A stretch of DNA of 21,544 nucleotides from a virus (lineage: Duplodnaviria > Heunggongvirae > Uroviricota > Caudoviricetes), in IMG/VR virus record IMGVR_UViG_2537561688_000020, one strand, 5' to 3'. The notes below the pieces were generated by a model, which saw only the letters and a list, made by a program, of their open reading frames with translations, did not search any database and was not told where the DNA came from. Below, piece after piece: positions 166 through 8,429 of this stretch; position 1 is the stretch's first letter, and each line of letters starts with the position of its first letter. Position numbers and translations under genes: made by a program.

Positions 166-385
166 GTCTAAATTAAAGCTCTTTTACTTTTTCAAAGTCC
201 TTTCAGTTAATTGATGTTTGGTTTTATAAGTCATTTGAATACAGTTAGTTATGTGGCTTCTTTAATTGAAAATTCTTTCATGTAACTTTAAATCGATCAG
301 GTTGCTTTCATCAAAAATCTGTACATATTTTTGTACATAATGTACAAAGCAGTAGAGGTGTTTTGCGATTTGTACAAGGTGAGTA

Positions 386-1624
386 ATGGCGCTGTCTGAT
401 GCGTGGTTGCGTTCAGTCGTTGGAAAGGAACGTGATAAGGTTTTGGTTAAATCCGATCGTGATGGTCTGTCTGTCAGAGTATCACCGAAAGGTCGCGTAG
501 TGTTCCAATATCGTTATCAATGGGCAGGGAAAGGTGAGCGCCTTGATATCGGAACTTACCCGGCAACTGGATTAAAAGAGGCCAGAGAAGAAGTTATCCG
601 TCTCCGTGGTGAACTCGAGTCAAACCGCAATCCACGATTAGTCAAGCAGGCTGAAAAACGAAAAGCTACTGAAGCCATGACGGTAGAGTCTGTGATCCGT
701 GCCTGGTATGAAGCATATTGTGTAAAAAATAAAAAAGGTTCTGAACAGATACTCCGCTCGTTTGAGCTGCACCTGTTCTCTAAAATCGGGAATATCCCTC
801 ACGATGCAGCTACATTGCATGATTGGTTAGAAGTCCTAGAGCCTCTTAGCACCAAGACTCCAGCAATAGTAGACCGATTGCTAATTAACGCAAAGCAGGC
901 TCATGTCTGGGCGTATAAGAGAAAGCTCATTGAAACTCGCCCACTGTCGGATATCACGGGTAAAGATATGGATATCCGTAAAGGTCAGAAAAAACGGTTT
1001 CTGACACATGATGAAATTAGCATCCTTTATGCTGCGATCGATGGTTCTCGAATGGTTCCTAAATACCGAGCCTTCATTAAACTATTGCTGCATTTTGGTT
1101 GCCGTAGTTCAGAGCTAATTACTGCTAGGGTGGATGATTTTGATTTCATAAATAAGGTATGGACTGTACCACCAGAACGACATAAGACTGGGGACATAAC
1201 AGGCGAACCGCTAAAGCGGCCCATTATTGAACCGGTTGAAGAGCTTATAAAATACGTTATCTCTATGAACAACGGTTCCGATATGCTTTTTACTAAGGAA
1301 GGAAGCAGGGAGCCAGTTGGTCGGACATCATTGCAGTCGCTGCCTTACAATTTAATGCAGTTCGCATGGCGACGTTTGGGGTATCAATTTCCTCATTGGT
1401 CTCTTCATGATTTGAGACGAACAGCACGAACAAACTTTTCTGATCTTACTGCGCCTCATATTGCTGAAATAATGCTCGGTCATAAACTGCCAGGGGTATG
1501 GCAAGTTTATGATAAGAGCGATTATCTAGAAGAACAGCGTAAAGCCTATCAGGCATGGTGGGATAGGGTTGAATCGATTCTTACTTACACTAATTTAGGT
1601 TCCAACAGACAGCCTATTGAATAA
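386..1624 (+). CDS. int: Phage tyrosine integrase (P4-type, N-terminal arm-binding domain)
   Basis: 412-aa ORF. N-terminal arm-binding-like region (LSVRVSPKGRVVFQYRYQWAGKGERLDIGTYP). C-terminal catalytic signatures HDLRRTARTNF and a downstream Tyr (VWQVYDKSDY). Sits next to the att-like prfC fragment. Confidence 0.9.
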   Translation: MALSDAWLRSVVGKERDKVLVKSDRDGLSVRVSPKGRVVFQYRYQWAGKGERLDIGTYPATGLKEAREEVIRLRGELESNRNPRLVKQAEKRKATEAMTVESVIRAWYEAYCVKNKKGSEQILRSFELHLFSKIGNIPHDAATLHDWLEVLEPLSTKTPAIVDRLLINAKQAHVWAYKRKLIETRPLSDITGKDMDIRKGQKKRFLTHDEISILYAAIDGSRMVPKYRAFIKLLLHFGCRSSELITARVDDFDFINKVWTVPPERHKTGDITGEPLKRPIIEPVEELIKYVISMNNGSDMLFTKEGSREPVGRTSLQSLPYNLMQFAWRRLGYQFPHWSLHDLRRTARTNFSDLTAPHIAEIMLGHKLPGVWQVYDKSDYLEEQRKAYQAWWDRVESILTYTNLGSNRQPIE

Positions 1625-1776: not shown

Positions 1777-3372
1777 TTATGGCTGAGACTCTGGTTTAGC
1801 AATCTCGTTTATAAATTTCTTAGCTACAACAGTCTCATACTTTCTATAATCATCAAGATATTGAACATCTATATGATTTTTGTAGCGAGCATTAAATTTA
1901 TTTGCAGCCCCTGTTTTATCATCTTTACGTTCATCCGTTGGTCTGAAAAATTTATGGTAGCGGCGGGGTGATACCCCCTCAAAATCACAAAATATTACTT
2001 TGGAAGATTCTTCGTTCTTTGTTATTGCATCATTATGCAGATCAAGAGCAAGGCTTTTATCAAATGGCTCTATATATACTACTTTTTTTATTCCAGATGC
2101 GACAATATGCCTTGCACAGTTGTGGCAGGGGTAGGTTGTCGTAAAAAGAATTTTATCTTTAGTATCGCCGTTTTGTTTTCTAGCCATTGATGTAATGACG
2201 TCCATTTCAGCATGAATTGATCTGGAGTACTCCATTACACTTGATATTTTGCTGTCTTTGTAAATGCCTTCTGCAATATTATCTAATTTGTTTAGAAGTC
2301 GTGTTATATTAATATCGGCAACAGTTTGTCCTGCGGAAATACCTAATACACTTCTTACTTCGGTTGATAATATGCTTTTTATACGGTCTTTAATTTTTAG
2401 CTTGTTTGCATCATTATAACACTTACCACTTTTGTGAACGCATCGATGATCGTTATCAAAATCATCACTGCTATACAACCCGCCACCAGCTTTAGGTACG
2501 TCGTTCTTACCCACGGCAAGCAAATTCCCTTCATCATCAAACAGTGCAGCCCCTACTTGACGTGATAAACAAGCTGATTGTAATGATGTTGAAAAGGCAG
2601 CATACATACCTTTCTCGTTAAAAGTTGGTGTTAAACCATTTTTGCCATGAATAAGACCGAAAAACCGATCAATCTTCTTCTTTAATTCACTTTTTTGGCT
2701 GAAGTTATTTTTAATAAAAAAATCTGAATCAAGAATGGTTTCCCCGGTTCTTTGTCCATACGGATCAGAGGATTTATTATCAATATTGATAATTAAATGA
2801 AGGTCGTCCTTTGCCGATTCGTCAGCAATGAGATTCGGAATTCGGTAATCTAAATCGCGCAAAACTCCTAACAAATAGAAATTATGCTGATATATAACTC
2901 TGAATAACTCTATTTCTTCCGGCCTTTTGAATTGATCAATGATGAAGACAGTACCTTTATATTCATCATTATTATAATCAATATTCTTTTTCGCTGTTGC
3001 GATTGCTGCAATAGCAGCTTCTGCAAGCAACTCATTTTTTTCGTAATGTTTACGAAGTTTATTGGCAATATCCTGGAGTTTTAAATGTCTATTAACTTGT
3101 GTGCTTTCGGATACCTTCAGTGCTGCTGGCTCAAAATATAATGGGTCTTCCATAAGCGCACTTATGCGGATGTGTACAACATTATCCCCCCATTCTTTGG
3201 ATATCTCTTCGATAATTTTGTTTATCGTTCTCATGCCACATCCAACATATCCACACAATCCAAGATAAATATCTTTTGATTGTCGTGAATTCACAATCTC
3301 AAGTGATGATGCCGATGTTGAGCCTTTTTTTTCATTCAGCTTTTGTGGAGTTTTTTTTGCTGCTTCAGCCAT
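1777..3372 (-). CDS. dcdV: DcdV-like anti-phage deoxycytidylate (dCTP/dCMP) deaminase: N-terminal P-loop-like domain fused to C-terminal zinc CDA-fold deaminase
   Basis: 531-aa ORF. C-terminal zinc-deaminase signature: CLSRQVGAALF, then HAE (H387/E389), then PCHNC (C416/C419) and GIKKVVY, as in dCMP deaminases. N-terminal glycine-rich P-loop-like stretch GLCGYVGCGMRT. About 32% GC in a sampled stretch versus about 60% in the replication genes. Int-proximal cargo position. Confidence 0.7.
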   Translation of the reverse strand: MAEAAKKTPQKLNEKKGSTSASSLEIVNSRQSKDIYLGLCGYVGCGMRTINKIIEEISKEWGDNVVHIRISALMEDPLYFEPAALKVSESTQVNRHLKLQDIANKLRKHYEKNELLAEAAIAAIATAKKNIDYNNDEYKGTVFIIDQFKRPEEIELFRVIYQHNFYLLGVLRDLDYRIPNLIADESAKDDLHLIINIDNKSSDPYGQRTGETILDSDFFIKNNFSQKSELKKKIDRFFGLIHGKNGLTPTFNEKGMYAAFSTSLQSACLSRQVGAALFDDEGNLLAVGKNDVPKAGGGLYSSDDFDNDHRCVHKSGKCYNDANKLKIKDRIKSILSTEVRSVLGISAGQTVADINITRLLNKLDNIAEGIYKDSKISSVMEYSRSIHAEMDVITSMARKQNGDTKDKILFTTTYPCHNCARHIVASGIKKVVYIEPFDKSLALDLHNDAITKNEESSKVIFCDFEGVSPRRYHKFFRPTDERKDDKTGAANKFNARYKNHIDVQYLDDYRKYETVVAKKFINEIAKPESQP

Positions 3373-3912: not shown

Positions 3913-4107
3913 TCATTCAATAACTCCTGCAAACCTGTAAATCTTGCGTGAAGCCCATTTATTTGGGCATGATTTAATATCAGGATCTGGAAAATCAGGC
4001 CTGTACTTCTGGCCAGTTCTCCGGTTTACGCTGTTCCAGCGAAGAACTGTCGATACTGAAACGCCACAGAAGTCGGCGACTTGTTTAGTTGTCATTAAGT
4101 TGTTCAT
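3913..4107 (-). CDS. Excisionase/AlpA-like HTH DNA-binding protein
   Basis: 64-aa ORF with the motif MTTKQVADFCGVSVSTVLRWN typical of small phage excisionase-family HTH proteins. Start codon overlaps the upstream gene stop (TAATG). Confidence 0.65.
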   Translation of the reverse strand: MNNLMTTKQVADFCGVSVSTVLRWNSVNRRTGQKYRPDFPDPDIKSCPNKWASRKIYRFAGVIE

Positions 4108-7597: not shown

Positions 7598-7625
7598 ATT
7601 ATGTATCTCATGGGTACATTGTCAA
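7598..7625 (-). promoter_or_regulatory. Candidate early-left promoter (pL-like) with overlapping 17-bp palindromic operator
   Basis: On the - strand: TTGACA (reverse complement of 7620-7625), 16-nt spacer, CATAAT (reverse complement of 7598-7603). Perfect palindrome agatacat-t-atgtatct at 7592-7608 overlaps the -10 element. Confidence 0.4.
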
Positions 7626-8355: not shown

Positions 8356-8374
8356 TTGTACCGATAAGGTACAA
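8356..8374. promoter_or_regulatory. Candidate operator palindrome in the cI-cro intergenic region
   Basis: Perfect inverted repeat TTGTACC-gataa-GGTACAA, just upstream of a candidate rightward promoter (TTGAAG 8380-8385, 16 nt, TAATAT 8402-8407). Confidence 0.45.
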
Positions 8375-8429
8375 GTATCTTGAAGGTTCATCTCAATCAT
8401 GTAATATGTATACCGGAGGTACATATTGT

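Follow-up and report, generated by a model that had tools for sequence, protein, structure and literature searches.

[quoted passage not shown] Two answers had been offered in the first-pass annotation of this DNA, namely arm-type binding sites for the recombination proteins, or control of the integrase gene by the phage repressor through sites related to a palindrome between cI and cro. The former is strongly supported by the analysis described below, and the link to cI-cro and the repressor is not sustained. We therefore assign a probability of roughly 0.8 to the reading that the TGTACA cluster represents the P′ arm of the attachment site, the one next to int, with four arm-type sites for the N-terminal domain of the adjacent integrase (Int), through which int is likely to be autoregulated.

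The Attachment Site in prfC and the Neighboring Genes

Positions 1–155 of the window are host DNA and comprise the prfC upstream region and the first 22 codons of prfC. The stretch 5′ of prfC (1–90, + strand) carries a promoter-like site at 1–28 (TTGCCT-16-TAAAAT, a 9/12 match) and is matched in 5425 of 5426 complete E. coli genomes; the window from 1 to 1700 is at least 80% covered in 699 of the 5,426. The truncated prfC 5′ end (91–165, +), as read from the sequence, runs into phage DNA and consists of the 22 codons followed by NN*. From the host prfC upstream region to int, no intrinsic terminator has been predicted. An alignment of the window with both att ends of an Stx2c prophage (attL, attR) and with the attP that is intact in the free phages Ayreon and cdtI has placed the att core, or crossover segment, at 142–155 (ATTATTTCTCACCC). 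The core is the same in attL, attP and attR, falls within prfC codons 18–22 and equals a 14-bp duplication annotated in the GenBank record LC727876, and integration at a conserved site in the prfC 5′ end is borne out by this alignment.

The int gene (386–1624, +) begins with the ATG at 386, 230 bp past the core end at 155, and its 5′ end faces att as it reads away from the core. Because the window starts in prfC, the core lies at 142–155 and int points away from it, the segment 156–385 is the int-proximal arm of attL and attP. Int is a tyrosine integrase with an N-terminal arm-binding domain (Pfam Arm-DNA-bind_3, residues 3–90, E = 2e-16, together with Phage_int_M and Phage_integrase); sequence matches link its N-terminus to 3jtz and 3ju0, the arm-binding domains solved for the HPI and HAI7 integrases, and the protein is 98% identical to the Int of phage cdtI. 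The RDF gene xis (3913–4107, −) encodes 64 aa (phrog_1553 excisionase, E = 8e-36) and lies 2.3 kb from int. The two genes are not co-transcribed, being placed on opposite strands with a convergent 531-aa gene between them, and they have been found together in every phage examined (Ayreon, cdtI, 2H10 and the Stx2c and Stx1a phages). The intervening gene (1777–3372, −) codes for a deaminase-domain protein and is probably a defence gene borne by the prophage, given its hit to PDLC02373, the PADLOC model of dCTP-deaminase anti-phage defence (E = 5e-161); the cargo between int and xis varies among phages with the same int, with 729 aa in Ayreon, 710 aa in cdtI and 239 aa in 2H10.

The TGTACA Cluster Upstream of int

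A hexamer scan has returned the four TGTACA copies exactly where the first-pass annotation had placed them (320–325, 332–337, 341–346 and 371–376), along with the palindrome TTGTACA-taa-TGTACAA at 331–347, whose full extent is a perfect 9+1+9 palindrome at 330–348, and the octamer TTGTACAA at 370–377. The cluster spans −67 to −9 relative to the int start codon and occupies the distal end of the arm 156–385. The earlier contention that such crowding is unlikely to be random has likewise held, both by count and in simulations. The whole window contains 10 TGTACA against 4.7 ± 1.8 expected, and it is the cluster that accounts for the excess; when the window was simulated 1000 times with a first-order Markov model, the number of copies in any 60 bp never rose above two, compared with the four observed; and three or more copies arose in none of 20,000 simulations at the local AT-rich composition of 156–385.

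Taken with their flanks, the hexamers define four candidate arm-type sites. P′a (CTGTACATAT, 319–328, +) is the first of a tandem pair, has an invariant hexamer and finds its counterpart at about −72 in relatives. P′b (TTGTACATAA, 331–340, +), the second of the pair, follows 12 bp past P′a and includes a −10-like CATAAT. P′c (TTGTACATTA on the − strand, 338–347) is inverted, and its 3-bp overlap with P′b makes the palindrome; Trabulsiella, some Acinetobacter and all Gifsy-1-type loci likewise have an inverted site near −45. P′d (TTGTACAAAT on the − strand, 368–377), inverted as well, abuts the int Shine-Dalgarno, and an inverted copy at about −20 has been found in nearly all relatives. The orientation + + (−) − has been assigned because relatives carry the non-palindromic variants GCGTACATAA, GAGTACATAA and GTGTCCAT, and the palindromy of the E. 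coli hexamer is therefore incidental.

Sequence variation among close relatives spares the hexamers. The 28 closely related loci comprise 19 distinct int-upstream sequences, and in a column profile of these all 24 hexamer columns are constant, whereas 61 of the remaining 206 columns vary (30%; Fisher p = 5e-4), and the segment 273–326 is largely invariant. The IMG/VR relatives, all at least 96% identical and most of them trimmed at int, were used for the conservation profile only. Between the core and the TGTACA sites, CTTTMA repeats are seen in the sequence at 258, 275, 286 and 305 (258–310, +), and a 20-nt repeat at 191–210 and 266–285 joins them there. Pseudomonas-type relatives have GACA-N7 repeated three to four times from about −125 to −85 before int, and Gifsy-1-type loci have G(T/A)CA at a 10–11 bp period between the core and the arm sites. 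The CTTTMA, GACA-N7 and G(T/A)CA repeats are candidate Xis/RDF sites.

Conservation Across Integrase Relatives

A scan of one genome per species has yielded 61 loci with Int relatives of 25–97% identity. Most of these carry a truncated prfC with the same peptide end as in the window, about 180–220 nt upstream of int, and a clade at 45% identity sits behind a truncated lepA ending in ..RNFSIIAHID. The site layout has been analysed in 55 loci with Int about 40–100% identical, including the Moraxella phage Mcat17 and the Gifsy-1-type phages; they come from Enterobacterales, Pseudomonas, Acinetobacter, Burkholderiales, Methylococcales and the Moraxella phage. A motif search in related prophages had been suggested in the first-pass annotation, and in this sample it has found the layout widely kept: two + strand GT[AC]CA exactly 12 bp apart and at most 110 nt from int are present in 51 of the 55 loci, and the pair together with an inverted copy downstream of it, before int, in 48. 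Shuffled sequences gave the pair in 6 of 11,000 cases and the pair with the inverted copy in 2 of 11,000, and int-coding windows in 0 of 550. The usual positions from int are −72 (+), −60 (+) and −20 (−); some clades add a (−) site near −45, and the 9+1+9 palindrome is confined to the E. coli and Trabulsiella lineage, the sites being separate in other relatives. The Moraxella phage Mcat17, whose Int is 40% identical, has two perfect tandem TTGTGTACATAA right before the Shine-Dalgarno, with the motif and the 12-bp period as in E. coli.

The layout persists even where the motif does not. In the lepA-targeting clade (Gifsy-1, SPN3UB, Kpn_R1 and Klebsiella phage 5), the sites lie at −73 (+), −61 (+), −46 (−) and −22 (−), but they read GTCCAT; SPN3UB and Kpn_R1, which have an intact attP, also carry a tandem GTGTCCA pair of 12-bp period on the far arm, about 50 bp before the phage-borne lepA start. 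Other clades show AGTACAAAT or GGTGTAAAT in an unchanged arrangement. A motif that changes in concert at all sites on both arms, with the layout kept, is the outcome to be expected of a binding protein encoded by the element itself. As to the target of the sister clade, the Ints of Gifsy-1, SPN3UB and Klebsiella phage 5 LV-2017 (about 45% identical) cut lepA after MKNIRNFSIIAHID, which represents the homologous G1-motif codons in a paralogous translational GTPase, and bring a replacement lepA start.

Within the arm-binding domain, position 41 is Q in 24 of 24 GTACA-type proteins and F in 11 of 11 GTCCA-type proteins. The exchanges Q41/F, R52/K, D54/T and L73/W have been observed to split GTACA-type from GTCCA-type Ints completely or nearly so (window positions 506–508, 539–541, 545–547 and 602–604, respectively). 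Int residues 41, 52, 54 and 73 are thus candidate specificity residues; the two clades are also phylogenetically separate, and the correspondence is to be taken as a lead, not proof.

The Far Arm and the Complete attP

In the phages Ayreon, cdtI and 2H10, GTACA sites on the far arm are located at −182 (−), −113 (−), −85 (+) and −73 (+) from the core, and those on the near arm at +179 (+), +191 (+), +200 (−) and +230 (−), with the int ATG at +244. Including the flanks, the motif of both arms follows the consensus wTTGTACATw, in the order + + − − on the near arm and − − + + on the far arm, and the tandem pairs of the two arms have the same 12-bp period and share a nearly identical 23-mer (TGTACATAnnnTTGTACATAAT). 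In Ayreon (44.7 kb) as well as in cdtI (47 kb), 6/6 of the 8-mers TTGTACAT/ATGTACAA are found within attP, and the Stx2c prophage carries two such 8-mers at attL plus four at attR. Phage 2H10 has two extra TGTACA (25004 and 25047) about 1.5 kb upstream of attP beside an invertase gene; one of them is a full TTGTACAT, the sole 8-mer outside att among the phages examined. The far arm has been inspected in the E. coli phages and the Gifsy-1-type phages. In Ayreon, cdtI and 2H10 it carries, along with an upstream region of its own, a phage-borne substitute for the prfC 5′ end, which becomes joined to the remainder of prfC at attR, and the far-arm tandem pair lies 14–37 bp before the start codon of this substitute. 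The arm-type reading is strongly supported by such an oriented motif, which occurs on both attP arms and almost nowhere else and which co-varies with the integrase clade.

Which Protein Reads the Sites

The palindrome between cI and cro is present exactly as first described (TTGTACCgataaGGTACAA, 8356–8374). It is one of three candidate CI operators (7601–7619, 8356–8374 and 8406–8424) of 19 bp with the form wTGTAy-N7-GGTACAw, i.e., TGTA-N9-TACA; two of them lie between cI and cro and one just past the cI 3′ end. They are kept in SfV, Ayreon, cdtI and 2H10, and the GenBank record of SfV annotates only a “putative operator region.” If the TGTACA sites were operators for CI (or Cro), int would be under immunity control and the sites would be kin of the cI-cro palindrome, with which they do have the TTGTAC half-site and dyad symmetry in common. 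The operators, however, have an N9 spacing with GGTAC inner bases, whereas the hexamer pairs upstream of int are spaced by N7 and N10 only (the palindrome being TGTA-N7-TACA), none of them by N9, and they are without GGTACC-type inner bases. The two elements have furthermore been found to dissociate: the Stx1a phage JNE122398 has an Int of 96% identity and the four hexamers at identical offsets, but its repressor shares just 32% identity and the 50 kb examined lack any TGTA-N9-TACA, whereas SfV has a CI of 99% identity and all three operators, its int is a different, lambda-oriented one, and its TGTACA, three in number, lie scattered and form no cluster, TTGTACAT being absent. In Pseudomonas, Acinetobacter and Moraxella, too, int is preceded by the conserved motif, on genomic islands and in phages, and repressor binding would leave the far-arm attP copies without a role. 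Because the geometry differs and int and cI dissociate, the earlier proposal of kinship with the cI-cro palindrome and of repressor control over int has to be abandoned; the dissociation comparison effectively refutes it, and we give it next to no credence. The TTGTAC half-site common to both is, judging from these comparisons, a coincidence of two GTAC-containing motifs, and the motif, as far as the compared genomes tell, goes with the int-xis module and not with immunity and cI.

Binding by Xis (3913–4107) and not by Int would have a precedent in TorI of KplE1, as RDFs bind att-arm repeats and can repress int (PMC2951348). The tandem pair is itself a direct repeat with its copies about one helical turn apart. 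Co-occurrence cannot separate Int from Xis, because the two are always inherited together (Xis accompanies this int in all phages examined) and the RDFs of the prfC-type and lepA-type clades are weakly homologous, which also speaks for Xis. Characterised RDF sites, however, are direct repeats and, as far as is known, lie on one arm. Gifsy-1 Xis occupies a single tripartite site made up of three imperfect direct repeats (PMC2603039), whereas here eight sites in both orientations are spread over both arms, and better RDF candidates adjoin them, namely CTTTMA and the G(A/T)CA repeated at a 10–11 bp period in Gifsy-1-type and Pseudomonas-type loci. Int is favored because of these eight sites on both arms and in both orientations and because of the separate direct repeats (CTTTMA, G(A/T)CA) nearby, a preference taken from the layout only, and Xis as the binder in place of Int is considered improbable. 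If the repeats were instead promoter or host-factor elements driving int and the phage-borne prfC 5′ end, and not recombination sites, one could understand why the tandem pairs of both arms stand just 5′ of rightward starts (int and the surrogate prfC′), why their second copies hold CATAAT, and why TGTACA agrees with TTGACA in 4/6 positions and TGTCCA-17-TATGAT of SPN3UB with a promoter in 8/12; but the far-arm copies at −182 and −113 are inverted and distant from any start, and the motif differs by clade (GTACAT, GTCCAT, AGTACAAAT, GGTGTAAAT) at constant layout, which suits a binder encoded by the element, and not sigma-70 or some host factor common to bacteria from Moraxella to Pseudomonas. 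A promoter would moreover be compatible with Int sites that overlap it and does not exclude them, and as a replacement for recombination sites this explanation appears quite improbable. It is scarcely credible, finally, that the palindrome works as an RNA hairpin or attenuator in the int 5′ UTR: the 9+1+9 dyad would lend itself to such a role, for which ICEKp1, attenuating int via 5′-UTR stem-loops, is a known case (PMC13023037), but the fold of 300–400 is no better than that of shuffles (z = −1.16), there is no U-tract, and the palindrome occurs only in one lineage, that of E. coli and Trabulsiella.

Int as the Putative Binding Protein and the Transcription of int

The analysis establishes the motif, how it is laid out on the two arms, that it is confined to att and conserved, and that it varies together with Int; from this we infer that Int is the protein bound. 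Those attributes of arm sites of a heterobivalent integrase that show in the sequence have been found, i.e., an arm domain in Int, a non-core motif on two arms, specificity for att and co-variation with the integrase. The N-terminal domain of Int would bind the arm sites and the C-terminal domains the core in prfC, and the eight sites, four per arm, would let Int bridge arms and core and form an intasome for integration and excision. Against the arm-site reading stands the 3-bp overlap of P′b and P′c, which makes full double occupancy in the usual manner impossible. A scan of 156–385 has given no IHF consensus (at most one mismatch) between the core and the sites.

Int bound at −67 to −9 would repress int, i.e., act as a negative autoregulator. 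We consider such repression likely, because the sites cover the last 67 bp before int, int and xis are uncoupled and the organisation resembles that of KplE1, HK620 and Sf6. No sigma-70 promoter of at least 9/12 has been found on the + strand in 155–385 (in a scan of 1–700) or in the Ayreon attP. A relaxed scan has given TTGCTT-16-CATATT over P′a as the best match (7/12) and the SPN3UB match mentioned above, and TGTACA-17-TACAAA, likewise 7/12, has been picked out by eye; by their position, the sites presumably overlap the int promoter. LexA, CRP and FNR-like boxes have been rejected by eye, as the sequence does not fit CTGT-N8-ACAG. An alternative or additional source of int transcripts may be read-through, from the host prfC promoter in the lysogen and from the far arm in the excised form.

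A bolder reading can be built on this arrangement. Integration would swap the upstream regions, bringing the host prfC promoter to int and phage DNA to the rebuilt prfC, and the eight sites might then form a two-ended, integration-state-dependent switch by which Int tunes its own synthesis and that of host RF3, with GTACAT/GTCCAT and Q41/F41 serving as a portable arm-recognition code. We regard this as a tentative idea that is rather unlikely to hold as a whole. If true, the pairing of GTACAT/GTCCAT with Q41/F41 would provide a simple arm-recognition code for the prfC/lepA-targeting integrases.

Significance

The int module described here is common and brings Stx1a, Stx2c and Cdt-I converting phages into prfC. 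Knowing its arm sites helps to draw prophage boundaries, to predict excision competence, to build integration vectors and to study low int in lysogens, and the sites would delimit a minimal attP that extends from −182 to +240 relative to the core, about 420 bp in all. The layout of a 12-bp tandem pair with inverted copies and a clade-specific motif offers a practical rule for finding arm sites of prfC/lepA-targeting integrases, a family that includes Gifsy-1 and, by published phylogeny, the SXT cluster. A false lead is removed as well, as int of these phages is not wired to the CI operators. The kind of element, arm-type sites over the regulatory region of int, is textbook; the motif and the layout across the family appear undescribed, no arm sites for the prfC/lepA-targeting family and no TGTACA arm sites being described in the searchable literature.

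Comparison With Known Systems

In KplE1, attL overlaps the promoter PintS, a P′ site overlaps the −10, and both IntS and TorI repress; HK620 and Sf6 are organised alike (Panis et al., 2010, PMC2951348), and the intergenic region of the class predicted to be autoregulated measures 208–228 bp (Panis et al., PMC2951348), against 230 bp from core end to int ATG here, which leaves room for attL. As in KplE1 (CPS-53), HK620 and Sf6, int adjoins attL here and reads away from it, the candidate P′ sites lie over the region presumed to hold the int promoter, the RDF gene is not coupled to int (xis being 2.3 kb off on the other strand), and autoregulation is predicted. Unlike in KplE1, the target is the protein-coding 5′ end of prfC and not a tRNA gene, Int is only distantly related, and the arm motif, known here from sequence alone, is wTTGTACATw in place of a TAAA-containing P′ motif.

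P4 integrates at a tRNA-Leu gene, and its Int has the same type of arm-binding domain. The P4 int gene has been stated to be negatively regulated by Int and Vis (Piazzolla et al., 2006, as cited in PMC2951348). The likeness lies in an integrase that binds near the start of its own gene, as predicted here, and in an AlpA/Vis-like RDF; the repeats are different and have, in the present case, been read off the DNA only.

ICEKp1 switches int promoters depending on its state (PMC13023037, 2026). The geometry described here would permit something alike, since in the lysogen the prfC promoter could read through prfC′ into int, with no predicted terminator, and in the excised form the far arm lies upstream. 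Unlike in ICEKp1, the scan of the Ayreon attP has given no consensus promoter on the far arm, and switching is here a possibility.

The lambda attP (P1, P2, P′1–P′3) is likewise served by a heterobivalent Int; its arm motif measures about 10 bp and bears no relation to the core, and copies occur on either arm and include tandem ones spaced by roughly one helical turn. Unlike the gene described here, lambda int points towards att, its control is exerted from PI/PL and sib, and its promoter is not overlapped by the arm sites. Further differences concern the family to which the arm-binding domain belongs, how many sites there are and how long the arms are, each arm measuring about 230 bp here.

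SXT reportedly uses the same 17-bp prfC site and brings its own prfC promoter and 5′ end. The prfC 5′ end is a target common to both elements. The SXT int is convergent with xis and driven by the SetCD-activated promoter Ps003 (PMC4344509), and, unlike int in the window, it does not read out of attL. The Int of the cdtI phage has been placed in the SXT cluster of the IntSXT subgroup, the members of which all target prfC (PMC8138268), and through its 98% identity to that protein, the present Int would belong to this cluster, too.

Gifsy-1 targets lepA with a 14-bp core and needs IHF and Xis, and as of 2008 only its Xis sites had been characterised (Flanigan and Gardner, PMC2603039). It belongs to the sister clade (45% identity) and has the same two-arm site layout, a core of 14 bp and a replaced 5′ end of a translational GTPase gene. 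The two systems differ in the motif, GTACAT here and GTCCAT in Gifsy-1, and in the target, prfC versus lepA.
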